NCBI GenBank assembly: GCA_045606425.1
Contig: JAZURV010000004.1
Coordinates: forward strand, 46,353 to 110,352
Direction: 5' to 3'
Origin: Candidatus Enterousia sp.
Lineage (GTDB): Bacteria; Pseudomonadota; Alphaproteobacteria; Rs-D84
Length of the DNA: 64,000 nucleotides
Part shown: positions 1-63,332 of the stretch, piece by piece
Layout of the letters: each line of letters begins with the position of its first letter
Numbering within the stretch: position 1 is the stretch's first letter
Position numbers and translations under genes: made by a program
Notes under the pieces: model-generated
Databases searched by the model: none
Told to the model about the DNA's origin: nothing
Seen by the model: the letters and a program-made list of their open reading frames with translations, nothing else

Positions 1-493
1 ATCTGCCACCACATAATACTGGATACAAAATACCATTTTTTGTCGCATCGGACATCAATTTACGACAAAGATCCACTGCTTTTCCTTGCAGATCTGAAAA
101 TTCATTACTTGTCGCACTTACACCTGGTATAGACGTATATTGTTCCTTGTTTACTTTAATTATATTATTAGCAAAAGTTTCACATAACTCAGGACATTTT
201 TTACCGCTTTTACCACGACCGTTTCTTAAAAAATCAGATTTATTACATTGTGTTTTACATACACTTATTGCATCAATCACAGAAAACGTTTTGCGTTCCA
301 ATAAATCTCTTAGAATTCTATTTCTTGTAGTCACAACCTCATGGTACGTATTAATAGAACTAGAAAAACCAGCATTGTTTAAAGCTGTTTCAATAATTTT
401 TGAATTCCATTGCAATTGTGTAGTTTCGGTTATAAACCCTGCAAACACTGGCACCGCCATAAAACAGGATAAAATTAAAAATATTTTTTTCAT
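1..493 (-). CDS. secreted hypothetical protein, truncated by the window edge (cargo gene of A-family module 1)
   Basis: Own minus-strand translation from the ATG at 493-491 gives MKKIFLILSCFMAVPVFAGF..., a Sec-type signal peptide. The frame stays open to position 1. The start overlaps the stop of the upstream gene (TAATG). It is absent from the ORF track because it runs off the window. Confidence 0.55.
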   Translation of the reverse strand, partial: MKKIFLILSCFMAVPVFAGFITETTQLQWNSKIIETALNNAGFSSSINTYHEVVTTRNRILRDLLERKTFSVIDAISVCKTQCNKSDFLRNGRGKSGKKCPELCETFANNIIKVNKEQYTSIPGVSATSNEFSDLQGKAVDLCRKLMSDATKNGILYPVLCGGR

Positions 494-1476
494 TATCTAA
501 GTGCCTCCTCACATGCTTCTGCGACTTTGACAACCTTCTTGATTGCAGATATTTGTGTCGCATTAAATATTGTTGCTGTTGCAGATGTCGCAGTTGATGC
601 ACCCGCCATAACATTTGCGGTTGCATTTAAATTTTTTTCTTTCTGTTCATCACCTTTACGTGTTTTATCTGTATTAGCAAGGCTACTTGTTATTGTTCCA
701 ACAACACCTGTTCCGATACCTATACCAGAAGCAATTGTAGCCCCATTTGCACGTTTATTTATTGGTTTTATATCAATATATTCATAATCACGACATGCAC
801 TTATGATTTCATCTGCCTTTGCTAAATCATAATCCGTTGCGGTATTTTCTACCTTTGCAGCCAGTTTAACATTTGATAAATTTTTTATTGCAACAATACA
901 TCTATTTATCTTGTTTTCTAAATCATCATCGACTTTATTAGAGGCTGCTATCGCTGTTCCTGCAATATTAGTGACAGTTGATGTCGCCAAAGTCCCTGTT
1001 CTGATATTACCAAGTGTTTTTGATTTTTGTTCTAATTCATTGATTTTTTTAACATCTGCAGAAATAACCGAATCGGCACTGTATGCCGCACTGTGTATAG
1101 CAGAATAAAATTCCTGTTCATTTGCAATTTCTAACTGTTGAACAGGCACATTAGATTTCTCTGCAATCAATTTCACAACTTTTGCTTCCAAATCCTGTTG
1201 TTCTTTATCTACACTTGCCTTCGCAATACCTGTCCCCAGTGCAACACCACCGGCAACGGTACCAACGGCTGTTACTGCGGTATTTATTCCCGCCATTTTT
1301 TTCAAATCAGCCATACTATCACTTATACCAGCACATGCTGTTCTGGCATTTTGAACGGCAAAATTTAAATCATTGGATTCTGCATAAGCACAAAAGTTAA
1401 ATGTTAATAAAAACAGGCACGGCAAAACTACCCGTGTGTGTGTGTGTGTGTGTGTGTAGGTTTCTGCGGTTTTCAC
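493..1476 (-). CDS. A-family secreted/membrane-associated protein, paralog 1 (Gly/Ala/Thr-rich hydrophobic segments, 4 conserved Cys)
   Basis: Paralogous to 7561..8556 and 31955..32905 (shared AGINTAVTAVGTVAGG, GN.RTG.LA, VGTITSS.AN.DK, NATQI.AIKKV.KV motifs). Start re-assigned to the in-frame GTG at 1476, preceded by RBS AAGGAAG. The ORF-track start at 1542 lies upstream of a sigma70 promoter. Confidence 0.7.
   Translation of the reverse strand: MKTAETYTHTHTHTRVVLPCLFLLTFNFCAYAESNDLNFAVQNARTACAGISDSMADLKKMAGINTAVTAVGTVAGGVALGTGIAKASVDKEQQDLEAKVVKLIAEKSNVPVQQLEIANEQEFYSAIHSAAYSADSVISADVKKINELEQKSKTLGNIRTGTLATSTVTNIAGTAIAASNKVDDDLENKINRCIVAIKNLSNVKLAAKVENTATDYDLAKADEIISACRDYEYIDIKPINKRANGATIASGIGIGTGVVGTITSSLANTDKTRKGDEQKEKNLNATANVMAGASTATSATATIFNATQISAIKKVVKVAEACEEALR
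1434..1457. repeat. (GT)12 dinucleotide simple-sequence repeat inside the signal-peptide coding region
   Basis: Counted directly: 24 nt of uninterrupted GT. It encodes (Thr-His)n between the start codon and the hydrophobic core of the signal peptide. Confidence 0.95.
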
Positions 1477-1503
1477 GGCTTTTCTTCCTTTCTTTACCGT
1501 TCC

Positions 1504-1532
1504 ATTATACCATAATTTAAAAATATTTGCAA
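1504..1532 (-). promoter_or_regulatory. sigma70-type promoter for A-family paralog 1
   Basis: Minus strand reads TTGCAA, a 17-nt spacer, then TATAAT with extended -10 TG (TGGTATAAT). It lies about 25 nt upstream of the RBS and GTG. Confidence 0.5.
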
Positions 1533-1564
1533 AAAAAAACACCGGCGATTACCGGTGTTTTTTC
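1531..1564 (-). terminator. intrinsic terminator downstream of dnaA (bidirectional shape)
   Basis: A-run, hairpin CACCGG-cgatt-ACCGGTG, then T-run. Confidence 0.6.
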
Positions 1565-1595
1565 TCCCTTCTTTTGTCCTTGCGAACAAAACTGT

Positions 1596-2873
1596 TTATT
1601 TGCAGATTTTTACCATGTCTTCAATTTCTGCATTTAATATCAAATCTGTGGCCTTTTGTTTTTCAATTTGGGTCAACGCATAAACAACTGTTGCATGGTC
1701 ACGTCCACCACAAATATTTCCAATTTCTGACAAAGATAAATTTGTAGATGCCTTTAACGCAGCCATCATAACCTGACGCGCACGAACCAAACGGCGGGCG
1801 CGCGAATTTCCGCAAATTTCATCAAACGAAACCGCCATCTTTTCGCACATCTTTTTAACCATCGCCAACGGTGTTTTTGTTTTATTCAATACATCAGACA
1901 ATAATTTTGACGCAACTTCCATATTGACGCGTTCACCCATCAATTCGCTGTATGTTTTTATTTTGTTGATAACACCATTTACCATATGACCGTCTGCTGC
2001 AATTTGTTTTGAAATTTCATCTGCAACAACAGAATCAACCCCGGCGCGCAACAACATATTGCGACGAACAAACGCATTTGGCCCCATGACATCAACCGCC
2101 AAACCAGACGCGAACAAAGATTGAATGCGTCTGTCAAAACCGTTCAACGCATTTGGCGCACAATTCGCAGTTAAAACAATACTTTTACCGGCAGTATGTA
2201 AATCCATCAACAACTGTAGAAATTCTTCACTGGTTGCGCGTTTCCCAGCCAGCGCACAAATATCGTCCATCACAAACATATCGCAATTGCGACAAAAATC
2301 TTTGAATGCGAATATAGTTCTGTCACGCAACGCACGCGCAAAATCTGCAACAAATTGCCCACCAGACATTCTGACCACGTTTTTATTTGTGGAATTACAA
2401 ATGCAATCCAACAACATAGTTTTTCCACAACCACTGGCGCCATATATAAACAATTGCGAAAAAGATGCGTCCGCCCCTGCAACCTTTTTACAGGCCGCAA
2501 CTGCAAACATATTTTCATCACATGTAATAAATTTATCGAAACCGTTTTTATTTTGTATTGTTTTTGTCGCAGGTTTATATTCGCAAACAACATTATCATT
2601 CGCGGTTGATGCAACATTATTATTTGCGCGCACAGAAATATTCAAATCCAAACAAAAATCCGCCGCTATATTTGCCAGGGTGTTTCCGTATTCCCTTTTG
2701 ACATAGTCGGCGGTGAATTGGTTTTGCGCAATCAGGTTCAAACAGTTTTCACATATATCTGCCTGCAACGGTGCAATCCATGCTGTAAATCCGGCAGAAT
2801 CTATTTTGGCCGCAAACGCCCCCATAACCGATTCCACATTTACATTTTTGTTCATCGCTACTGCTTGTTGCAT
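1596..2873 (-). CDS. dnaA: chromosomal replication initiator DnaA (short form, 425 aa)
   Basis: Walker A GASGCGKT, Walker B FVMDD, and C-terminal DNA-binding segment GGRDHATVVYA. Confidence 0.95.
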   Translation of the reverse strand: MQQAVAMNKNVNVESVMGAFAAKIDSAGFTAWIAPLQADICENCLNLIAQNQFTADYVKREYGNTLANIAADFCLDLNISVRANNNVASTANDNVVCEYKPATKTIQNKNGFDKFITCDENMFAVAACKKVAGADASFSQLFIYGASGCGKTMLLDCICNSTNKNVVRMSGGQFVADFARALRDRTIFAFKDFCRNCDMFVMDDICALAGKRATSEEFLQLLMDLHTAGKSIVLTANCAPNALNGFDRRIQSLFASGLAVDVMGPNAFVRRNMLLRAGVDSVVADEISKQIAADGHMVNGVINKIKTYSELMGERVNMEVASKLLSDVLNKTKTPLAMVKKMCEKMAVSFDEICGNSRARRLVRARQVMMAALKASTNLSLSEIGNICGGRDHATVVYALTQIEKQKATDLILNAEIEDMVKICK

Positions 2874-3151
2874 ACTGTTTGCTCCTTTCCTTTGTTAAAA
2901 AGAGTTGGCAATCATATTTATGGTTATAAAACCACCCCGCACATAAACGCCTTATATGCCACCATTCTCTTTTTTCTCTCGCTTTGTTGATTGACTTTCA
3001 GCAATCGTTTTTGATGTTAAACAATTTATAAAATTTATTTCTGTTTGCAATCAAATGTTAAACAATTTTTCAACATTTCTGTTTTGACAACGATTCGTTT
3101 TTTTATTGGTTTTTCGCACTTTGTATATACACTGTATAGACATTTTTTTAC

Positions 3152-4189
3152 TCAGTTTAAAACATATCCACCGTCTTGTTTTCTTATCAAACCTTGTAAT
3201 TCCAGAACTACTAATTCAGACTTGATTTCCGAAACACTTTTTTTGACAAGATTTGCCAATACAGATTCTGACACAGGAATCATTCCTATTTTATCCAAAA
3301 GGTCATTTTCATTATTTTTATTTTTTTTACTTTTTTCTTCTGTTATATCACCAAAGAAATCTTTTACAGATGTGCACATTGTTGCCACGCCTTTCTTTAT
3401 CAGCGAATTCGGCCCTGCACTGCGCGCGTCACTGGGGTGTCCAGGCACAGCAAACAGCCTTTTTCCATAATCTATTGCGAATCGGGCGGTGGTCATACTG
3501 CCAGATTTTTCATCTGCTTCGCCAACAATTAAAACATCAGACAACGCCGCAACCCAATGATTTCTTTGTACAAAATTCGATGCTGTTGGCATCATACCAA
3601 CGGGCATTTCACTTATCACCACACCGCGTTCCAGTATTTCATAATACAGCGATTCGTTTTCCAATGGCCATATATAATCGACACCGCCCGCCAACACTGC
3701 GATTGTCTGGGCGTTTCCGTTCGCACGCAACGCCCCACTGTGTGCCGCAGTATCACACCCCATCGCCATACCAGACGCAACTGCGAACCCATGTTCTGCA
3801 AACGCACACGCAATATCAGAAACGAAATTCATACCCGCCACCGTCGAATGCCGTGTCCCAACAACAGAAACTGATTTTTTTCCCAATGTTGATATGTTCC
3901 CACGTGCAGTTATAACAATCGGGTGATTTTTTACATTTAACAAACCAACCGGATATCGCGAATCGGTATCGGCTATGTATTCAATGCCCAAATCATAGGC
4001 GGTGTCCATTTCGCGTCTGACAGAATCTATAAAATCCTGTGATGGTGCCAAATGCGCCAATATATTTTCATCGTTCCCATATTTATCGACCAGTTCTTTA
4101 TACTTTGCCGGCCCTATTTTTGGGGTTCTTAAAATCAAAAGTTTATTTAACATATCCATCATAATAAAAAAGATTGTAGATGAAACCAC
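3152..4189 (-). CDS. dprA: DNA-processing protein DprA/Smf
   Basis: SGMA.GCDTAAH and VVGTRH motifs with a C-terminal winged-helix-like tail. The true start is probably one of the internal Met codons near 4153-4159. Confidence 0.9.
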   Translation of the reverse strand: MVSSTIFFIMMDMLNKLLILRTPKIGPAKYKELVDKYGNDENILAHLAPSQDFIDSVRREMDTAYDLGIEYIADTDSRYPVGLLNVKNHPIVITARGNISTLGKKSVSVVGTRHSTVAGMNFVSDIACAFAEHGFAVASGMAMGCDTAAHSGALRANGNAQTIAVLAGGVDYIWPLENESLYYEILERGVVISEMPVGMMPTASNFVQRNHWVAALSDVLIVGEADEKSGSMTTARFAIDYGKRLFAVPGHPSDARSAGPNSLIKKGVATMCTSVKDFFGDITEEKSKKNKNNENDLLDKIGMIPVSESVLANLVKKSVSEIKSELVVLELQGLIRKQDGGYVLN

Positions 4190-6136: not shown

Positions 6137-7564
6137 TTAAATATAATCACAATTTGTTTCTTCTGTATCTTTATTTATCTCTTCTTTACATTTGCATGGC
6201 ATACACTGACTTTCTTCACAATCTGTACAAAGTTCAGAAACAGGGCCATAATCAACTATTACCTTTAACGACGAAAAATCTGTTTGAACCTCAAACCATT
6301 TTATAAAATTATCTATGTTTGATGTTAAATCTATGCATCCCGCAGAACCCGCATAACTTCCCCCATGGATATACATATCTGGTTTACGTCCAAACAAATC
6401 TGTATTTGTGTCTGGGCGCAAAGGAACACGAAACTTTCCCCACGCCCCTCCTTCTTTATCTGCAAGAAGAGAATTATTATTGAAATTACCAACTGTTATA
6501 TTATCCATATATTGAATTTCGTTTTGATAGATATAATATACACCACTTGGTGTTGGGCCAATATGTTCACATGCTTGATATTCAGGTAATTGGCACACAG
6601 TTGGCCTTGAATCCCTTGGTGATTTTCCACGACCAGACACAGCAGGCCAAGATTTTATAACATTACCTTTATAATATACATCGAATTTCTTACCGTCAAA
6701 TTTCGTATAATAATCATTTGACAGTGCTGGCTTATGTTCTTTATCGTAAGAAACGACACAAACGCCACCTTTTTTTACAGAACCATAACCCCATTTTGAT
6801 AACTTTTCATTTAACAAACCACAATCGTTATGTTGGCATTCAAAATCAAAACCATAACCATCATAAATATATTTTCTGACACTTCGATTATCTAAAACGC
6901 CTGCTATTGGTTTAGCAGCCACCGCTTCTGATTTCCCACCATAAATTAAACAAAGCCCACGACCAAAATCTCTTTGTGTATATTGATTTGCATTAGCATT
7001 AGATTCTTTTGCGTCATCAAACTTAAATTCGTAATAAATTGGTTTCAATTTCGATGTACATTTTATGTAATCGTCCTTAACCCCTTCGCGAATATCAGAC
7101 GAACAAACTATTTCATCATTATATTTTTCTCTGGCATACTCTTGTGCCAAATTTTTTGCCTGAGCAAATTGAACTTCTATATCATAAAACACAAATTCTA
7201 TGCAACGCTCATTGTCTTTACCGATTTTGCCCTTGTCTTTACCACAAACTTCATAATATGTATAATTATCATCAGCGGCGCTTACTAATGCGCGTCTGAA
7301 TTCTGCCCGTTTGGCTTTGTCTTTTGTTCTGTCCCATCCTGCGGCATCACATATCTTAGCTATCGATTCCGCACTAACCGTATTTTTTGGATTGTTATTG
7401 TTTAATTCCATATTATACACACTTATCACCTTTTCCCGAACGGTCTTGTCTGGAAAATATTGCCGTAATACACTTAATGCTACATTAGCTGGAATATGTA
7501 TATTCGCATACGAATTTATCGTCATCAAACACATCGAAATTGCACAGAATATTTTCTTTATCAT
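6137..7564 (-). CDS. secreted protein with C-terminal Tlde1/DUF2778-like L,D-transpeptidase-fold toxin domain
   Basis: Signal peptide MIKKIFCAISMCLMTINSYA from the ATG at 7564. C-terminal region: FDGKKF..WPAVSGRG..GPTPSGVYYI..FRVPLRP..GRKPDMYIHGGSYAGSAGCIDL (the H...S.GC catalytic motif of the YkuD-like fold). ATGA overlap with the upstream A-family gene. Confidence 0.7.
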   Translation of the reverse strand: MIKKIFCAISMCLMTINSYANIHIPANVALSVLRQYFPDKTVREKVISVYNMELNNNNPKNTVSAESIAKICDAAGWDRTKDKAKRAEFRRALVSAADDNYTYYEVCGKDKGKIGKDNERCIEFVFYDIEVQFAQAKNLAQEYAREKYNDEIVCSSDIREGVKDDYIKCTSKLKPIYYEFKFDDAKESNANANQYTQRDFGRGLCLIYGGKSEAVAAKPIAGVLDNRSVRKYIYDGYGFDFECQHNDCGLLNEKLSKWGYGSVKKGGVCVVSYDKEHKPALSNDYYTKFDGKKFDVYYKGNVIKSWPAVSGRGKSPRDSRPTVCQLPEYQACEHIGPTPSGVYYIYQNEIQYMDNITVGNFNNNSLLADKEGGAWGKFRVPLRPDTNTDLFGRKPDMYIHGGSYAGSAGCIDLTSNIDNFIKWFEVQTDFSSLKVIVDYGPVSELCTDCEESQCMPCKCKEEINKDTEETNCDYI

Positions 7565-8556
7565 TTCAATACCCCCGTACAACCTGATGATACTTTGGCA
7601 ACTTTCTTTATCGCTGCAATTTGCGTTGCATTAAACACTGTCGCCGCCGCAGACGCTGTCGTTGTGGCGCCCGCCATAACATTTGACGCAATATTTAAAT
7701 TTTTTTCTTTCTTTTTTCCTGAATCCGTATTGTCGTTTCTGACTTTATCACTGTTTGCGATGCTACTTGTTATCGTTCCAACACCACCCAATCCTGCACC
7801 AACAGATGACGATATCATCGCACCACGTCCACGTTTGTTTATTGGGCTGATATCTACATATTCATATTCACGACATGCTTTATATATTTCTTGCGCTTCA
7901 CTGACATCTGTGCCAGCCAATTTGGCGGATAATATCGCATTATTTAAATCTTTGGTCGCAGATATACATGCATCAACCTGACCCTGAATATCGTCTTTGT
8001 TGATTGTGCGACTGGCGATAATCGCACCCGCAACATTAGTCGCTGTATTTCCCGCCAATAATCCTGTGCGCCAATTACCCTGTCTTTTCGATTTCTTATC
8101 CAACTCTTTTATTTCTTCTGTTATATCCTTTGCATGCGCAGTTTCATACTCATCGCATTCTTTCAAAAATGCGACTTTGTCTTCTGCTGTTGCTTCTGGT
8201 CCTTCGTATTCATTAGACAACCTTTCCAATTCTTGTTCCAATTCTTCAATTTTGCTGTCTGTGTTTGCTTTTGCAATCCCTGTTGCTGTTGCGCCAATAC
8301 CCAATCCGGTTCCAACCGCTGTCACCGCAGTATTTATTCCCGCCAAAACCTTTATATCATGTAAATTTTCATCTATATCAACACATGCGCGATATGTGTT
8401 TTGTAATGCAGTGTTTAAATCTAAAACTTCGGCAAAAGATGTGAACGGAATTAAAACCGTTACGAAAAACACCGTTGTTGTCCAATAAAAAACAACCACG
8501 CATCTATACGTACAAAGTCCCAAAGTTTTTACAATTTTTATCCCCTTCTTCACCAC
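7561..8556 (-). CDS. A-family secreted/membrane-associated protein, paralog 2
   Basis: Paralog of 493..1476 and 31955..32905. Exact start uncertain (GTG at 8556 or downstream). Confidence 0.7.
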   Translation of the reverse strand: MVKKGIKIVKTLGLCTYRCVVVFYWTTTVFFVTVLIPFTSFAEVLDLNTALQNTYRACVDIDENLHDIKVLAGINTAVTAVGTGLGIGATATGIAKANTDSKIEELEQELERLSNEYEGPEATAEDKVAFLKECDEYETAHAKDITEEIKELDKKSKRQGNWRTGLLAGNTATNVAGAIIASRTINKDDIQGQVDACISATKDLNNAILSAKLAGTDVSEAQEIYKACREYEYVDISPINKRGRGAMISSSVGAGLGGVGTITSSIANSDKVRNDNTDSGKKKEKNLNIASNVMAGATTTASAAATVFNATQIAAIKKVAKVSSGCTGVLK

Positions 8557-8622: not shown

Positions 8623-8654
8623 AAATTAAATAGAATTGTTTAGATGCGAAGTTG
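8623..8654. repeat. 32-nt direct repeat, copy 1
   Basis: aaattaaatagaattgtttagatgcgaagttg is repeated at 10268..10299. Its last 5 nt overlap the start of the 58-nt rpsT-end repeat copy. Confidence 0.9.
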
Positions 8655-8707
8655 CCAAAATTGCATAATTAGGTTTTCTAAAAAAACAAACCGCCCAATC
8701 GGGCGGT
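8650..8707. repeat. 58-nt direct repeat, copy 2 (rpsT 3' end plus terminator, no rpsT body)
   Basis: Identical to 6019..6076. The hairpin here serves as terminator for 8713..9195. Confidence 0.9.
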
Positions 8708-8712
8708 GTTTT

Positions 8713-9195
8713 TTAGTCACCAGACGGATTATTAAAAGTCCAACCGACAAATATTTTCCCGTTTATGTGTTGCGCTTTCCGTGGTGTGCGGATATCACCA
8801 CCGTATGTCACACTGCCCGCGTCGTTTGCGTCAATATCAGATTGGTCTGCATGGTCCCAATTTATCGTTATGGTATTCGGTTCATAAACAGCAACCAAAC
8901 CCATCGGAAAATTAGCGGCACACGAATTATTCATGGTGGCGTCCGAAAAAGAATCGAAAATTACCCCCTGAAAATTATCTGGATTAAAATCAAATGTTCC
9001 GCCGGGGCACGTTCCGCCGGTCGGACACGCGACACAAGTGACAGCATTCGCAGGTAAAAATTGTCCACTTGCGCAAGTATAAGAATTTGGTTCATACACC
9101 GCATAATAATCAGGAACATCTGTATCACACATCATATCTGCAAACACAGATTGCGTTATAATTACCGCCGATAAAAACACATAAATTTTTTTCAT
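8713..9195 (-). CDS. Cys-rich secreted protein with conserved C-terminal B-repeat (Listeria/Bacteroides repeat-like) domain
   Basis: Signal peptide MKKIYVFLSAVIITQSVFA, CxxC-rich middle, and C-terminus ITINW..DIDANDAGSVTYGGDIRTPRKA.H..GK.FVGWTFN shared with three other genes. Confidence 0.75.
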   Translation of the reverse strand: MKKIYVFLSAVIITQSVFADMMCDTDVPDYYAVYEPNSYTCASGQFLPANAVTCVACPTGGTCPGGTFDFNPDNFQGVIFDSFSDATMNNSCAANFPMGLVAVYEPNTITINWDHADQSDIDANDAGSVTYGGDIRTPRKAQHINGKIFVGWTFNNPSGD

Positions 9196-9977
9196 TGTAA
9201 ATCGCCAATCTCTGGTCCCGCAACAAATGTACCTGTACCGGCGTTCGTGAAGAACTGACCAGATACAGTGTCATACATACCAACGACATTGTCGAACTGA
9301 CGGCGCGCCGGAATACCATTAAATACCAATGTACCAGACGAATTTCTTATCCAAACACTATACATCTGTGCAGAAACTTTTTGAATTGCGGAAACATTAC
9401 TATTATTCGCAAACAAATATAATTTCAGTCGATTATCACTAATACCACTTTGTTGAGTAAAGGTTTTTGTAACACCATCTATATTTAGCGTAACATTGTT
9501 ATTATTATCAACTATTGTATGGATTGTGTGTTTGACGTTATTAGCAACCTCCCCCAGATTTGAATAACTGCTAGATGTTGAATTATAAAAGCTTAATACG
9601 CCAGAGCCATAATAATAATAAGTTTGACGCAAATTATAACTAGCACTAGTATCTTGACACCCCATTAATGACACATCATTTGCACCGTTTGTTTTTTTAA
9701 AATTTATAAACACTTCGCTTGCCAGTTTATCCAATATGACGCCCGTATCGATATACTGTGTACCTGTACTTTCAATGTATTCCAGTTTGGTGTAGCCTGA
9801 TTCCCATCTGACAAAATGATAGCCTGTTTTTGCTGGGGCGGTTGGCGGAGTTATATTGTCACCAGATTGACAACTGGTTGTTGATACAACCTGTCCGTTC
9901 GCATACCAATTTATCGTGTGTGCAATTGCGCCGGCACATATAAACATCGCAAATAAAAACATCAAGATTTTTTTCAT
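9192..9977 (-). CDS. secreted protein: N-terminal B-repeat domain plus conserved ~190-aa C-terminal domain (LEYIESTGTQYIDTG ... GMYDTVSGQFFTNAGTGTF)
   Basis: Paralog of 44619..45410. Has the GYHFVRW B-repeat signature. ATGA overlap with the downstream gene. Confidence 0.7.
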   Translation of the reverse strand: MKKILMFLFAMFICAGAIAHTINWYANGQVVSTTSCQSGDNITPPTAPAKTGYHFVRWESGYTKLEYIESTGTQYIDTGVILDKLASEVFINFKKTNGANDVSLMGCQDTSASYNLRQTYYYYGSGVLSFYNSTSSSYSNLGEVANNVKHTIHTIVDNNNNVTLNIDGVTKTFTQQSGISDNRLKLYLFANNSNVSAIQKVSAQMYSVWIRNSSGTLVFNGIPARRQFDNVVGMYDTVSGQFFTNAGTGTFVAGPEIGDLQ

Positions 9978-10001
9978 TTCTTCCCCTATTTCAAATTATC
10001 A

Positions 10002-10180
10002 AAAAACCACCGGAAAAATTCAGGCGGTTGGAGGCTCAAAACAATTCAAATAGGAAATTGCGTGCTTATTTATGTATATCGCAACCCTCCAACCTAGGTT
10101 GGAGAACTTTTCGCTCTGGTCTTTCAGAACGCCTATTTGTTCTGGGTTTTGAGTCCCATCGACAAAACTCTTGCCGACAT
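10002..10180 (-). promoter_or_regulatory. structured 5' leader RNA L1 with intrinsic terminator (family of four)
   Basis: -10 TAAAAT at 10185-10190. Covarying helices are shared with L2-L4. Terminator AACCGCC-loop-GGTGGTT-T6 lies 24 nt before the ATG at 9977. Confidence 0.7.
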
Positions 10181-10267
10181 AGACATTTTATCAAACATAT
10201 AAAAATAATGAAAGAAAAAAAATTTTTAAACAAACACCACCCAATCTGGTGGCATATTTCATAAAAC

Positions 10268-10299
10268 AAATTAAATAGAATTGTTTAGATGCGAAGTTG
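10268..10299. repeat. 32-nt direct repeat, copy 2
   Basis: Identical to 8623..8654. It is followed by a long imperfect hairpin (GTTGTCAGT ... ACTGACAAC, 10296-10343). Confidence 0.9.
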
Positions 10300-20629: not shown

Positions 20630-20705
20630 TGGTGGCCAGAAGAGGAATCGAACCTCTGACACAGGGATTTTCAGTCCCTTGCTCTACCAACTGAGCTATC
20701 TGGCC
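20630..20705 (-). tRNA. tRNA-Phe (GAA), CCA encoded
   Basis: Hand-folded cloverleaf: acceptor GGCCAGA/TCTGGCC, anticodon stem AGGGA/TCCCT with loop CTGAAAA, T-arm AGAGG-TTCGATT-CCTCT. Confidence 0.9.
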
Positions 20706-29283: not shown

Positions 29284-29359
29284 TGGTGGACGCACAGGGA
29301 CTCGAACCCTGGACCCACTGATTAAGAGTCAGTTGCTCTACCAACTGAGCTATGCATCC
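29284..29359 (-). tRNA. tRNA-Lys (CTT), CCA encoded
   Basis: Hand-folded: acceptor GGATGCA/TGCGTCC, anticodon loop CTCTTAA, T-arm CAGGG-TTCGAGT-CCCTG. Confidence 0.9.
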
Positions 29360-43427: not shown

Positions 43428-43447
43428 TGCGGATTACAGAAAGCAAG

Positions 43448-43547
43448 TTCCCCTCCTGCGGAGGGGTGGTCTTTTGTTGTCAAGGTTGTTCGTTTTTTTT
43501 CAACCCTCCCCGCCACTTCGTGGTCCCCCCGCCCCGGGCGGGGAATA
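43448..43547. repeat. GC-rich palindromic MITE-like element, copy A
   Basis: Left arm TTCCCCTCC-tgc-GGAGGGG; right arm CCCTCCCCGCC...CCCCGCCCC-ggg-CGGGGAAT. Confidence 0.6.
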
Positions 43548-43644: not shown

Positions 43645-43868
43645 AATTCCCCTCCCACGGAGGGGTGGATTGGCGGAACGCAGTGACGACAAGACGGGGA
43701 GGGGTCAAATAAAAATTTATTATTGAATTCATTTTTTTTCATAAATAAGATGTAAAACAAGATATGTCTAATATTTTGATATGGATAAAGCGAAATATAG
43801 ATTTAATAAACTGAATTTAATTTGACCCCTCCCCGCCCTGCGGGCCCTCCCCTCCGGCGGAGGGGAAT
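43645..43868. repeat. GC-rich palindromic MITE-like element, copy B (long AT-rich centre)
   Basis: AATTCCCCTCC-cac-GGAGGGG ... GGGGAGGGGTCAAAT, an AT-rich centre of ~110 nt, then ATTTGACCCCTCCCCGCC...CCCCTCC-ggc-GGAGGGGAAT. Confidence 0.7.
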
Positions 43869-43944: not shown

Positions 43945-44619
43945 TTATTGTGGTGTATTGAATGTCCAACCGGTAAAGATTTTACCTGGTTTGTGGACTG
44001 CTTTCCGTGGCGTTCTGATATCACCACCGTATGTGACAGAACCGGCGTCGTTTGCCGCGATATCTTCCGCAGACGCGTCCGCCCATGTGATGCTGATAGT
44101 ATTCGCAGTGCACGACGACGAACCAGCAGTCGACGAATACCCCGTTGCACAGGGTTCGATTCCTTGATCAATTGTTTCATTAAAAGTATATGTTCCACCA
44201 GAACAAATATTATTTGCTGGACAAATTGTGCACACATCAACCCCCGCTGGTAAATAATATCCGGCAGAGCAAGTATGCGAATTTGGTTCAAAAATCGCAA
44301 TTATTTCGTGTGGCGCATTTGCAGCACAGGTATTGGTTAAATTATTTACAAATAAGTTTGGATTGTTTAAGCCCTGATTTTCGTTTTTTTTGAAATTAAA
44401 GACTCCTCCTGTGCAACTATAATCAATCGGACATGTACGACATCCAAGGGTATTTGCCGGTAAAAATTCACCAGAAAAACACTCGTATTGGTTTGGTGTA
44501 AACACAGCAACAAACATATCTTCTTCAGGACCGCCACATGAATTTGGTATTGGTTCGGTATAATACGTGAAAGCATTCAAAGAACACCAAGCAATAAAGA
44601 TGACAAATATTTTTTTCAT
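43945..44619 (-). CDS. Cys-rich secreted protein with conserved C-terminal B-repeat domain
   Basis: Signal peptide; repeated C..G.Y/F..C..CP motifs; C-terminus ISITW..DIAANDAGSVTYGGDIRTPRKAVHKPGKIFTGWTFN. Confidence 0.75.
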   Translation of the reverse strand: MKKIFVIFIAWCSLNAFTYYTEPIPNSCGGPEEDMFVAVFTPNQYECFSGEFLPANTLGCRTCPIDYSCTGGVFNFKKNENQGLNNPNLFVNNLTNTCAANAPHEIIAIFEPNSHTCSAGYYLPAGVDVCTICPANNICSGGTYTFNETIDQGIEPCATGYSSTAGSSSCTANTISITWADASAEDIAANDAGSVTYGGDIRTPRKAVHKPGKIFTGWTFNTPQ

Positions 44620-45410
44620 TATTCAACCTCGGGCCCAGCAATAAAATTACCTGTTCCTGAATTTGTGAAAAATATTTTTGTGACAGTATCATACATACCA
44701 ACAGTATTGTTTTTTATTGCTGGTATTAAATTGTGTGAAAGATTTTCCCCATCCCAAATCTGACAATAATATATTCGACCACGAAAAGGGAATTCCATTC
44801 TTCCACTGGTATTACGTGCAAATAAAAACAAAGTATAATTGGCGAACCATTCTCCATTTGTAGGGAAAGTCCAAGTATGAATATCTTTTATAGACACCAC
44901 ATTTTTATTATAATATAGCTCGTATTTTATTCTTGTTGTATCGCCTTCTGAAATAGTAGTGACTGTTCCGCTTTCGTTTCCTCCAAAACCGATACGATTT
45001 GGCACCAACAAACGTACCAGTCCATTTTTTGAATTACTTGCGTCCCCATAGTCAGCACAACCCAAAACTGCCATATTTTGGTTAATTGTGTCTGTTCTCA
45101 TATAAGCAATTTTTACAGACGTATCTTTGTTAGGAAAATAACCAGTATCGATATATTGTATTCCTGTGGCTTCTATATATTCAAGAGGCGTATAACTTTT
45201 TTCACGCCATCCCTGAAATGTATACCCGTATTTTGTTGGTGCTAATGGTAAATTTATATCACCGCCTGTTTGGCAAGTTGTTGTGTTGTATACGCTGCCA
45301 TCAACATACCATTTTATCGTTTCTGTATCGGCGTATAATGCGGTTGTAAACAGCAACGACAATAATAACACTAATAATTTTTTCATCTCTCTTTCCTTTC
45401 GTTTGTTCAT
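44619..45410 (-). CDS. secreted protein: N-terminal B-repeat plus conserved C-terminal domain (paralog of 9192..9977)
   Basis: GYTFQGW; LEYIEATGIQYIDTG ... GMYDTVTKIFFTNSGTGNF. TAATG overlap with the downstream gene. Confidence 0.7.
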   Translation of the reverse strand: MNKRKEREMKKLLVLLLSLLFTTALYADTETIKWYVDGSVYNTTTCQTGGDINLPLAPTKYGYTFQGWREKSYTPLEYIEATGIQYIDTGYFPNKDTSVKIAYMRTDTINQNMAVLGCADYGDASNSKNGLVRLLVPNRIGFGGNESGTVTTISEGDTTRIKYELYYNKNVVSIKDIHTWTFPTNGEWFANYTLFLFARNTSGRMEFPFRGRIYYCQIWDGENLSHNLIPAIKNNTVGMYDTVTKIFFTNSGTGNFIAGPEVE

Positions 45411-45426
45411 TTGCCCATCGCAGACT

Positions 45427-45567
45427 AATTCCCCTCCACGGGAGGGGTACGGCGCCAGCCGTGGGGAGGAGTCAAATTAAATAAATATAATTATAAAAAA
45501 ATTACAATTATATTTATCGGTCCCCTCCCCGCCACGTTGTGGCCCTCCCCTCCGTCGGAGGGGAATT
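45427..45567. repeat. GC-rich palindromic MITE-like element, copy C
   Basis: AATTCCCCTCC-acg-GGAGGGG ... GGGGAGGAGTCAAATT, an AT-rich centre, then GGTCCCCTCCCCGCC...CCCCTCC-gtc-GGAGGGGAATT. It sits between leader L2 and its gene. Confidence 0.7.
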
Positions 45568-45584
45568 GCACCATTCCCAGTGCG

Positions 45585-45780
45585 AAACATCAAAATACCG
45601 CATTTGAAAATCAAAGGCGGTTGGAGGTTAACGACAATTTAGACTGAAAATTGTGCGCTTATTCATATATATCAGCGCCCTCCAACCTATATTCAAGTTG
45701 GAGATTCTTTCACGTCCATATACACAATGGACAACAGTCTAAACGGGTCGTTACACCCATCAGGAAAACACTTCCTGACG
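45585..45780 (-). promoter_or_regulatory. structured 5' leader RNA L2 (family of four)
   Basis: -10 TAAAAT at 45786-45791. Same helices as L1 and L3 with compensatory changes. Variant terminator ACCGC-loop-GCGGT plus a U-rich tail. Confidence 0.65.
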
Positions 45781-56321: not shown

Positions 56322-56339
56322 AAAATCCCCCTTTTGAAC

Positions 56340-56515
56340 AAAAAACCACCGGAAAAATTCAGGCGGTTGGAGGCTAGTAACAATTCAGTACGAAATTGTG
56401 TGCTTATTTATATATATCGCAGCCCTCCAACCTGCTTTGGTTGGAGTTTTTTACGTCACATGGACGCGTACCGAAACGGGCTACTAGACCCCATCGGCAA
56501 AACCCTTGCCGACCT
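56340..56515 (-). promoter_or_regulatory. structured 5' leader RNA L3 (family of four)
   Basis: Promoter TTGTCA, 17-nt spacer, TAAAAT (-10 at 56520-56525). Helices as described in the findings. Terminator AACCGCC-loop-GGTGGTT-T6 lies 18 nt before the RBS and ATG. Confidence 0.7.
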
Positions 56516-56571
56516 TTGTATTTTATCAAAACAAATGTATTATGACAATAAAAAAACGGCGATTGCCGTTT

Positions 56572-62048: not shown

Positions 62049-63095
62049 TTACTGATTTGGTGTATTGAATGTCCAACCGGTGAAGACTTTACCAGCCTTA
62101 TGCACGGCTTTGCGTGGTGTTCTGATATCACCACCGTATGTGACAGAACCCGCATCATTCGCGTCAATATCAGATTGGTCTGCATCCGCCCAAGTAATCG
62201 CAATTGTGTTGGCTTGGCAGGATGGTGCCCCAGCAGGAATCGCATTGAACACCGCAGCACGCCAATCGGGGTTTTCCACACCCATGTAATCCCGAAGGTA
62301 GTCCGCACAGATGTCCGGGCAGTATTCTGCGCAACTACTCGAGGAGCTGTAGCGATTAAAAAACACCCAGGGAGCAGATACGTTCTGGCTGACGCCATTA
62401 TCATCTGGCAAGCCAGTATCCGGTGTATAACTATCAATTTGACACCAACAATTCGAACCGTTCGTAAAGTCCGCGGTCACAGTATTCGATGTGTCACCCC
62501 TAGAAGCTGCACTGCCTTGTGTACTACATACTGCTTTACCTGTTATACGACCTTTCTCAGAAAAATCTATACCAAAGGTATCCGTTGCAGTTATTCCGTA
62601 TCTTGTTTGGCTTGTTGAACCTGCACCGTTATGATATGTGCCACTGTGGTCTATGTATCCGTATGCGGTGCCCTGGCTGTTTCCGATTATGCTTGCAAAA
62701 TCTGGGTTGCCTGGGTTAAGTGTATACCCCGTATCACAGGTTGCGATGGCGCAGGTGTCGGTTTCATTTGCACCCTGATAATTTTTACCAGTTACACTTG
62801 CGATATGGGAATTTGCCGGAAAGTCAGATACTGTACAGGCTTTATAACACTGGTCGGTACTTGTTGCACCATCATCACTGTTTGGAAATCCGGTCGGACA
62901 GTCCGTATAACTTGCACTTGTTGTTGCTGTTCCGCTTGATACTTTCAAATTCGTAACATTTGCCTGACCAACATAAGTATAGTCTTCCGCCATTACCCCG
63001 TTACTGGGAAATGAATTTGAACTGTGTGATGGTTCTGCGATTGCTGGCACTGCAACCAATGCCAATATTGTTCCAAAACTAAATATTTTGTTCAT
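62049..63095 (-). CDS. large Cys-rich secreted protein with conserved C-terminal B-repeat domain
   Basis: Signal peptide; Cys-rich variable body; C-terminus IAITW..DIDANDAGSVTYGGDIRTPRKAVHKAGKVFTGWTFN. Confidence 0.75.
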   Translation of the reverse strand: MNKIFSFGTILALVAVPAIAEPSHSSNSFPSNGVMAEDYTYVGQANVTNLKVSSGTATTSASYTDCPTGFPNSDDGATSTDQCYKACTVSDFPANSHIASVTGKNYQGANETDTCAIATCDTGYTLNPGNPDFASIIGNSQGTAYGYIDHSGTYHNGAGSTSQTRYGITATDTFGIDFSEKGRITGKAVCSTQGSAASRGDTSNTVTADFTNGSNCWCQIDSYTPDTGLPDDNGVSQNVSAPWVFFNRYSSSSSCAEYCPDICADYLRDYMGVENPDWRAAVFNAIPAGAPSCQANTIAITWADADQSDIDANDAGSVTYGGDIRTPRKAVHKAGKVFTGWTFNTPNQ

Positions 63096-63119
63096 AGGTT
63101 ATCCCCCTTTCTTTGCTTT

Positions 63120-63332
63120 AAAAAACCACCAAAAGAAACTGGTGGTCGGGGAGTTCAAAAATCAGATTATCATCGATCCCGTTGCCTTTAGATATACGCT
63201 AACGGCTCCCCAACCTTGTTATGTCAGGGACAATAACGGTGCAAAAACACCGATAATAACACAAGATACGATGCCTTCGCACCGGATAATCTGGGCTTTT
63301 GACGACCCCGAACCCAATTCCCATTGGATTCA
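63120..63332 (-). promoter_or_regulatory. structured 5' leader RNA L4 (divergent family member)
   Basis: Promoter TTTACA, 17-nt spacer, TATAAT (-10 at 63338-63343). Same architecture as L1-L3 with different primary sequence. Terminator CCACCA-loop-TGGTGG-T6. Confidence 0.6.

Follow-up and report, generated by a model that had tools for sequence, protein, structure and literature searches.

A structured leader RNA with two alternative folds, a candidate transcription attenuator, in Candidatus Enterousia

The DNA analysed here, referred to as the window, is a stretch of 64,000 nucleotides (nt) from Candidatus Enterousia sp. (GenBank assembly GCA_045606425.1, contig JAZURV010000004.1, positions 46,353 to 110,352 of the forward strand), and its subject is a leader RNA with a fold of about 175 nt, four copies of which are located on the minus strand. 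Three of them (L1, L2 and L3) can be aligned end to end, and the fourth (L4) is a diverged copy. Each copy lies 3' of an extended -10 promoter and closes with an intrinsic terminator shortly before a ribosome-binding site. Exactly four genes of the window carry a conserved C-terminal B-repeat domain, and each of these is found downstream of a leader copy; behind L1 and L2 the B-repeat gene is the second of a two-gene unit. The gene product behind L3 is a Cys-rich protein of 250 amino acids whose N-terminus is signal-peptide-like and whose C-terminal part forms a B-repeat-like domain. The coordinates of all features are collated in Table 1.

Three segments of the leader recur throughout the description and are called the boxes: box 1 (CUCCAACC), the shared arm (GGUUGGAG) and box 3 (CCUCCAACC). 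Further copies were retrieved with a pattern scan in which the three boxes were fixed (one genome per species) and with a covariance model, R1, that was trained on 120 copies from other genomes together with L1-L3, L4 being left out. When R1 was run with filters off over the whole 64 kb, exactly four copies were found, at the bit scores given in Table 1, and no fifth copy was returned. All four fold much more stably than their own dinucleotide shuffles (z -5.0 to -7.2). A first-pass annotation of this stretch had listed four structured copies, all of which are present within a few bases of the places it gave, and the covariance model that it had proposed as a check, now built and run, recovered copies in this window and in related metagenome-assembled genomes (MAGs). 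The helices that it had listed also hold, namely the CTCCAACC/GGTTGGAG hairpin, the 5' hairpin P0 with compensatory changes, the G-run, and a long-range helix that differs fully between copies; its second CCTCCAACC copy does overlap the 5' arm of the terminator.

The pairing of the terminator state was examined in a model-based alignment of 111 copies (A4). The pairs of this state are formed in 95.8% of cells, with a covariation score of 0.478 as compared with 0.157 for shuffled alignments and at most 0.066 when the partners were slid. The helices P0, P2a, P3 and P5 are rich in double changes: in P0 all seven of the seven pairs are changed on both sides (111 copies, 95.6% of cells paired), as are four of four in P3 and four of five in P5, into which a hairpin is inserted in some copies. 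The A-rich linker that follows P3 is kept as "aaa" in the consensus. In P4, the hairpin formed by box 1 and the shared arm, 98% of cells are paired; its last pair is weak (CG in 68 copies, UG in 26, other in 17), which leaves about seven solid pairs. The duplex energy of P2a amounts to -6.97 kcal/mol for cognate strands versus -1.41 kcal/mol for non-cognate ones. The strands of P2b could not be placed in register by the model and were tested by duplex energies, which gave family-wide means of -5.97 kcal/mol (cognate) versus -0.64 kcal/mol (non-cognate).

A second set of pairs, consisting of the shared arm with box 3 and of the local stems Pa and Pc, is conserved equally clearly: in A4 it is paired in 95.4% of cells with a score of 0.487 versus 0.154 for shuffled alignments, and its covariation holds too in an independent metagenome set (A6). 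The antiterminator helix itself (GGUUGGAGG with box 3 CCUCCAACC, 9 bp) is paired in 99.9% of cells in A4 and in 98.4% in A6. Pa can be formed by the G-run and the CCCG segment (in the family, the G-run with CCYN), its pair 45:59 occurring as GC in 63 copies, AU in 25 and GU in 16; in Pc (in the family, CWAU with AUWG), pair 215:234 occurs as UA in 70 copies, AU in 38 and other in 3. P2a provides its 5' strand as the loop of Pa, and P2b its 3' strand as the loop of Pc. As the linker between Pc and P2b has zero length, these two should be mutually exclusive on steric grounds, and Pa and P2a could in principle coexist as an H-type pseudoknot. When the antiterminator was enforced, Pa and Pc were both present in the predicted folds of the window copies. 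Both folds of the leader are under selection.

As regards the boxes, only two sets of copies are unbiased. One comprises the extra copies that the covariance model added; the other comes from a second scan, made on metagenome contigs (position-9 scan), in which a base other than G was required at position 9 of the arm and the partner base was left free. Among the extra copies, five carry GGUUGGAGU together with ACUCCAACC, which corresponds to an exchange of G:C for U:A at pair 9 of the antiterminator, and one carries CCUUCUGC/GCAGGAGG/CCUCCUGCC as box 1, arm and box 3. In the RNA of L4 the three boxes read CCCUGAC/GGUUGGGGAG/CUCCCCGACC, its arm and box 3 remaining complementary over 10 bp (one G:U) after an inserted pair. 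Further whole-box co-variants are CCAGUUCC/GGGACUGGA/UCCAGUCCC and CUUCAACC/GGUUGGGGG/CCCCCAACC, so that all three boxes have changed together in four independent copies, a rare event in the family. In the position-9 scan, 52 of the 55 hits with family features were complementary or wobble-paired at this position (U:A 43, U:G 7, A:U 1, C:G 1) and only three were mismatched, although the partner base is C in about 95% of the family overall; the set confirmed by the covariance model contained U:A 47, U:G 7, A:U 4, G:C 4, C:G 1 and six unpaired cases.

In the box variants, box 3 keeps its Watson-Crick match to the arm, whereas box 1 tolerates G:U. Good pairing of the arm's two end nucleotides is confined to the antiterminator, which has nine solid pairs as compared with about seven in P4, and this difference could let them serve as toeholds when strands are exchanged. 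G:U and U:G pairs are frequent in the helices (A:C cells were not counted separately), which points to pairing in the transcript, since the complementary strand would carry A:C mismatches at these places. That the boxes vary while staying mutually complementary argues for structural elements rather than for recognition sequences of a trans-acting RNA or protein; a role of the boxes as sites for pairing with tRNA, rRNA or small RNA (sRNA) is unlikely, given that they change freely as long as complementarity in cis is retained.

A sigma70-type promoter is kept in 110 copies (TTG at -36 to -34, TGnTAnAAT at -15 to -7), and in these its distance to the first nucleotide of the fold is fixed. A Shine-Dalgarno sequence and a start codon follow 35-70 nt past box 3 on the same strand in most of 127 copies, and because of this short distance there is no space for a second promoter after the terminator. 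A simple terminator test, which asked for a hairpin at -6 kcal/mol or lower with five or more U after it, was passed by 142 of 185 distinct copies. An attenuation mediated by ribosomes on a leader peptide was considered and rejected, the short open reading frame not being conserved: at the only recurrent site, directly 3' of P0, an AUG is present in 52 of 202 copies, the reading frames range from 3 to 57 codons, and no upstream Shine-Dalgarno sequence was noted by eye.

Table 1. Leader copies in the window and parts of L3 (positions are those of the window).
Feature	Positions	Strand	Sequence or remark
L3 promoter	56520-56548	minus	-35 TTGTCA 56543-56548; 17-nt spacer; extended -10 TGaTAAAAT 56520-56528
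L3 leader RNA	56338-56513	minus	176 nt, probable start G to terminator U-tract; covariance model 138.8 bits; fold z -5.0
P0, 5' hairpin	56494-56512	minus	TCGGCAA / loop GGGTT / TTGCCGA
G-run, P2a 5' strand, CCCG	GGGG 56489-56492; CTAGTA 56482-56487; CCCG 56477-56480	minus	
P2b 5' strand	56467-56476	minus	TTTCGGTACG; partner CGTACTGAA at 56384-56392
P3, variable hairpin	56454-56466	minus	CGTC/GACG; then A-rich linker TAAAAAA 56447-56453
P4, anti-antiterminator hairpin	56424-56446	minus	box 1 CTCCAACC 56439-56446, loop, shared arm GGTTGGAGG 56424-56432
P5, short stem	56398-56423	minus	encloses conserved GAUAUAUAUAAAUAAG loop; family consensus GAAUA...GAAUAAG
Pc, local stem	56381-56398	minus	CAATT 56394-56398 / AATTG 56381-56385; loop = P2b 3' strand
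P2a 3' strand	56374-56379	minus	TACTAG
Box 3	56365-56373	minus	CCTCCAACC; can pair with shared arm (9 bp) or, via AACC, inside terminator stem
Intrinsic terminator	56340-56368	minus	AACCGCC / loop / GGTGGTT, then T-run
L3 gene	55569-56334	minus	Shine-Dalgarno AAAGGGGGA 56326-56334; ATG 56321
L1 leader	9999-10178	minus	covariance model 124.9 bits; fold z -5.6; upstream of genes 9192-9977 and 8713-9195
L2 leader	45590-45779	minus	covariance model 113.7 bits; fold z -7.2; upstream of genes 44619-45410 and 43945-44619
L4 leader	63118-63331	minus	covariance model 29.6 bits, E = 1e-6; fold z -6.9; upstream of gene 62049-63095
L4 boxes	box 1 63223-63229; arm 63206-63215; box 3 63144-63153	minus	CCCTGAC; GGTTGGGGAG; CTCCCCGACC; terminator next

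Some features of the surrounding DNA are recorded here for completeness. A GC-rich repeat is inserted between the terminator of L2 and the first L2 gene, which is thereby about 180 nt away. It is one of several REP-like hairpins (CCCCTCC-N4-GGAGGGG) at about 45530-45570, at about 43440-43470, at 43645-43665 and at 43843-43868, located in intergenic DNA with a GC content of about 50% as compared with 39.5% for the window; other leader copies (e.g., L086, L087 and L070) are also followed by a GC-rich stretch after the terminator, which was not compared with the REP-like hairpins. A repeat of about 33 nt (ACAACTTCGCATCTAAACAATTCTATTTAATTT, minus strand) occurs 5' of the L1 promoter (about 10262-10294) and again 5' of the promoter of gene 7561-8556 (about 8625-8657) and could be an operator or the remnant of a duplication. 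Just upstream of L3 (51382-55508) lie a gene for a TraG/VirD4-like type IV secretion coupling protein (769 amino acids) and then two lipoprotein-like genes, an arrangement that is seen in related contigs as well (L001, positions 1-4018, where one of the lipoproteins is LpoB-like). Exact-match look-ups with the L3 protein and with its closest homologue returned no contig.

Altogether about 200 further copies were obtained by pattern scan and covariance model, nearly all from Candidatus Enterousia and related gut Alphaproteobacteria MAGs. The pattern scan gave at least 119 loci, nearly all in MAGs named Candidatus Enterousia, uncultured gut or rumen Alphaproteobacteria, or "Rickettsiales", and several MAGs held three or four loci among the matches listed. 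When R1 was applied to the first 100 loci, 112 copies were found, nine of which do not fit the retrieval pattern; the second scan, of metagenome contigs, yielded 91 matches confirmed by the covariance model (76 distinct). The density is four copies per 64 kb here; around copies elsewhere, the flanking DNA holds roughly one more for every 80 kb. One related metagenome contig is syntenic with the L2 region (SPOR, TatA, leader and gene, DksA, thioredoxin, SufS), and the variable helices of its copy are entirely different. Complete units also stand head to tail in groups of two to four (L186 5637-6431, L171, L219, L195, L212 and L090 3397-3763); the four units of the L186 array are strongly unlike one another, and each is equipped with a -10-like box and with a box set that has co-varied separately, which adds to the unbiased evidence on the boxes. 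A MAG labelled "uncultured Muribaculaceae bacterium" contributes two contigs with typical copies (L006, CAZJGX010000004.1; L045, CAZJGX010000002.1); these contigs probably belong to Alphaproteobacteria and were mis-binned.

Candidatus Enterousia, a member of the order Rs-D84, and its relatives are gut bacteria that have not been cultured; their genomes measure about 0.75-1.0 Mb, and flagella, tricarboxylic acid cycle and respiration are absent from the lineage (PMC12306168). The 114 distinct proteins encoded downstream of the leader copies fall into many families. A Pfam search of 95 of them gave the Listeria-Bacteroides repeat in 11 and XRE-type helix-turn-helix domains in up to 10 for one family, and otherwise only single cases such as an EcoRI-type methylase. 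A signal-peptide-like N-terminus was detected in 63 of the 95 by a simple hydrophobicity test (28 of these have at least 4% Cys), and another 28 are small proteins without signal peptide, many of them of the XRE helix-turn-helix type. No common pathway emerges among the 95 proteins scanned. Gene 7561-8556 of the window (minus strand; 331 amino acids, hydrophobic signal-peptide-like N-terminus) has its own promoter and no leader, and homologues with 49% identity are found directly behind a leader elsewhere (L124 12214-13164, L125 962-1912, L109, L055 and L061). Two contigs of IMG/VR, the only ones of that collection with the leader, likewise carry a homologue of this gene directly behind it; as this exported-protein gene is known from cellular contigs, the assignment of the leader to a phage element was rejected.

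In the mechanism proposed here, transcription would start at P0 from the constitutive-looking sigma70 promoter with its extended -10 element, and the RNA would then adopt one of the two folds. With the gene off, P2a and P2b would close a four-way junction of P2b, P3, P4 and P5, box 1 would capture the shared arm in the P4 hairpin, and box 3 would be left free, its AACC joining the stem of the intrinsic terminator. With the gene on, box 3 would be taken up into a 9-bp helix with the shared arm, at the expense of the base of the terminator stem, and the long helix would give way to the local hairpins Pa and Pc, which keep its strands. The scheme would be the classical one of three segments, with anti-antiterminator, antiterminator and terminator. 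As the downstream gene appears to be without any other promoter, its expression would depend on read-through. All copies would presumably respond to one signal, likely through the conserved junction and loop nucleotides, and this signal could be a small ligand, an RNA-binding protein or the speed of transcription; our slight preference is for a signal by which the junction is stabilised and the genes are turned off.

The evidence suggests with fair likelihood that the leader is a cis-acting transcription attenuator and represents a new, uncatalogued RNA family. Most of what the first-pass annotation had put forward is borne out: the sigma70-like promoter is conserved in the 110 copies, the element is a structured 5' leader as judged by the Shine-Dalgarno sequence and start codon that follow it in most copies, and the exclusivity of terminator and antiterminator folds is borne out by the compensations at the ninth pair and by the whole-box co-variants. 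One of its statements needs to be narrowed: a location upstream of every B-repeat locus applies to all four loci in the window and is not specific, many unrelated genes standing behind the leader elsewhere. Of its description as riboswitch-like or as a protein- or tRNA-responsive attenuator, the attenuator and riboswitch-like part is supported and the tRNA-responsive option is not.

Several points weigh against the attenuator interpretation. The first retrieval pattern fixed all three boxes, and the invariance of the boxes in those copies is therefore given by construction. Constrained folding of 110 leaders placed the terminator state below the best antiterminator fold by a median of 13.9 kcal/mol; with a difference of this size, termination would be the default at equilibrium, and read-through would need a kinetic route or a factor. 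Folding by minimum free energy predicted a helix P1 (G-run with CCUC of box 3) in place of Pa, and P1 has no covariation evidence, box 3 being invariant. The tandem arrays, with a -10-like box for each copy, would also suit independent small transcripts, and the downstream genes have no common metabolic theme that would point to a ligand. Termination and read-through themselves are deduced from sequence features only.

As to what might operate the attenuator, a true riboswitch, in which the choice of fold is made by a small molecule or second messenger bound at the four-way junction, is a special case of the attenuator that we regard as possible but less probable than its absence. The fold is large and intricate, the conserved unpaired nucleotides are concentrated in the junction and in the internal loop of P5, and the expression platform overlaps the sensor domain. 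Like c-di-GMP riboswitches and T-box leaders, the element occurs in several copies per genome and in complete tandem copies. Proteins with signal-peptide-like N-termini prevail in the gene set, which resembles the regulons of second messengers in this respect. On the other hand, the gene set is metabolically incoherent and offers no candidate ligand, no riboswitch model of Rfam matches even below threshold, and no GGDEF, EAL, HD-GYP, DAC or PilZ signatures came up when 1.03 Mb of related DNA was scanned for motifs in a crude way, which is weak evidence. It can be put forward tentatively that the leader is a new riboswitch class, with a four-way-junction aptamer for a small molecule or second messenger that acts by refolding of the whole domain, local hairpins and long-range helices swapping strands. 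Should this be the case, the riboswitch might, with the same reserve, govern much of the exported-protein repertoire and the XRE regulators of the Rs-D84/Enterousia lineage.

A comparably uncertain alternative is a switch without a dedicated ligand, operated by an RNA-binding protein or by the speed of the polymerase (nucleoside triphosphate pools, NusA/NusG); in its kinetic form, an equally speculative part of this alternative, Pa and Pc would compete with P2a and P2b during transcription. Selection on both the local and the long-range alternatives is in line with such a switch, as is the much greater stability of the terminator state, which implies that the outcome is decided kinetically or by a factor. 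The genomes are smaller than 1 Mb (PMC12306168), and a global signal would be an economical solution if the number of regulators encoded in them is small. No candidate protein can be named for the protein-operated version, however, a purely kinetic switch would not need the conserved junction nucleotides, and a factor that reads the boxes in a sequence-specific manner is at odds with boxes that vary and yet stay complementary.

That the units are instead independent genes for trans-acting sRNAs of about 175 nt, each with its own terminator, and that the downstream genes are read incidentally, is improbable. Each unit does combine a strong promoter with a terminator, no other fold comes near the terminated one in stability, a -10-like box is kept for each copy in the tandem arrays, and one variant copy shows a sub-threshold likeness to the experimentally detected 88-nt sRNA-Xcc1. 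Against this stand the fixed spacing and orientation relative to the Shine-Dalgarno sequence and start codon without space for another promoter, the variable helices, which differ in every copy and leave no shared seed for targets, and the selection on a helix that destroys the terminator, which would be pointless in a terminated small RNA.

An element acting at the DNA level (an integron attC-like site or a mobile repeat) has hardly any probability and was rejected, the reasons being the genomic context, the strand specificity of the G:U pairs and the conservation of promoter and terminator: box 1 CTCCAAC and arm GTTGGAG may be likened to the attC core sites RYYYAAC and GTTRRRY, the spread before unrelated small genes (XRE regulators, an antitoxin-like protein, a methyltransferase) is cassette-like, and the sole sub-threshold Rfam match is an integron-associated RNA, but the window copies are scattered among housekeeping genes, whose order around L2, from SPOR to SufS, recurs in a related metagenome contig, a promoter and a U-tract terminator are conserved in the unit, the G:U pairs indicate folding of the mRNA-sense strand whereas attC folds on the bottom strand, and the fold is branched and 175 nt long rather than a single imperfect hairpin.

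If the attenuator does gate its genes, it would rank among the major regulatory systems of the Enterousia lineage and would provide a handle on when these bacteria display exported, Cys-rich, adhesin-like proteins. Irrespective of the signal, about 200 sequences with covariation for two complete folds and with natural three-way compensatory variants constitute a case for the study of co-transcriptional switching, and the leader is a new candidate for the orphan riboswitches.

For comparison with known RNAs, the window was searched against Rfam 15. At the gathering threshold the whole window gave only two tRNAs (20633-20705 and 29287-29359, minus strand). With E values up to 10, only unrelated weak sRNA models were returned for the L3 region, and more than 25 other copies gave nothing relevant, even below threshold. 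The statement of the first-pass annotation that no described class is recognisable thus agrees with the search, in which the window copies had no match at the gathering score and no relevant match below it. A search of the literature on Enterousia, Rs-D84 or RF32 in combination with structured RNAs yielded no description of the leader RNA. The leader is outside every described class tested.

The closest resemblance is to sRNA-Xcc1 (RF02221), which aligned over its full model to one variant copy outside the window (L186 5946-6020) with 34.8 bits, the gathering score being 53. The aligned part of this copy is the read-through fold, consisting of a G-rich outer helix of 9 bp, two hairpins with an AAUA-type loop, and a U-rich tail; the shape of sRNA-Xcc1 (outer helix of about 9 bp, two hairpins, U-rich 3' end) is also that of the arm:box 3 helix enclosing P5 and Pc. 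sRNA-Xcc1 is itself multi-copy, with a cluster of five in Xylella about 385 nt apart, and lies upstream of small genes (symE or an ORF6N-domain gene). It has a length of 88 nt with mapped ends and has been reported from Xanthomonas, Xylella and an APSE phage of Hamiltonella. By its size it should be without a counterpart of P0, Pa, P2, P3 and box 1, and its Rfam model appears to have no separate terminator hairpin, the flanking DNA not having been examined. Furthermore, the conserved promoter of the leader is located about 110 nt upstream of the outer helix, before P0, whereas the sRNA-Xcc1 transcript would start at the outer helix. Membership in this family was rejected, since 34.8 bits is below the score of 53 and no match was obtained for the window copies or for more than 25 others; part of its consensus in Rfam, run by BLAST against plasmids, gave no match. 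The resemblance is a lead, not membership, and raises the question of whether RNAs of the sRNA-Xcc1 type, annotated as trans-acting sRNAs 5' of small genes, are related to cis-acting leaders.

With riboswitches and T-box leaders (e.g., c-di-GMP-I/GEMM) the leader shares a covarying 5' leader fold, a terminator 5' arm that is shared with an alternative helix, and the occurrence of multiple and of tandem copies per genome. It differs from them in that it has no Rfam match, no specifier or T-box sequence and a non-metabolic gene set: the T-box models gave no match at E values up to 10 or up to 1, the downstream genes encoding exported proteins and XRE regulators, and the GEMM-I and GEMM-II models gave none for the window copies or the more than 25 other copies. 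Of the general properties of riboswitches, a covarying structured domain in the 5' leader and an expression platform that overlaps the sensor with exclusive folds are both present, and a gene set pointing to one metabolite or signal is not. In contrast to riboswitches in which one P1 strand is exchanged, a whole long-range helix would be remodelled here, its strands being held in the loops of Pa and Pc.

Motifs for binding of PyrR- or TRAP-type proteins were not seen in the leader, and none were searched for. In its segment logic the leader resembles the trp leader (1:2/2:3/3:4) and the anti-antiterminator of PyrR, the first pairing being that of box 1 and the arm, the second that of the arm and box 3, and the third the terminator stem, in which box 3 is joined to the downstream arm. 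Unlike the trp leader, it has no conserved leader peptide, and its anti-antiterminator lies inside a four-way junction.

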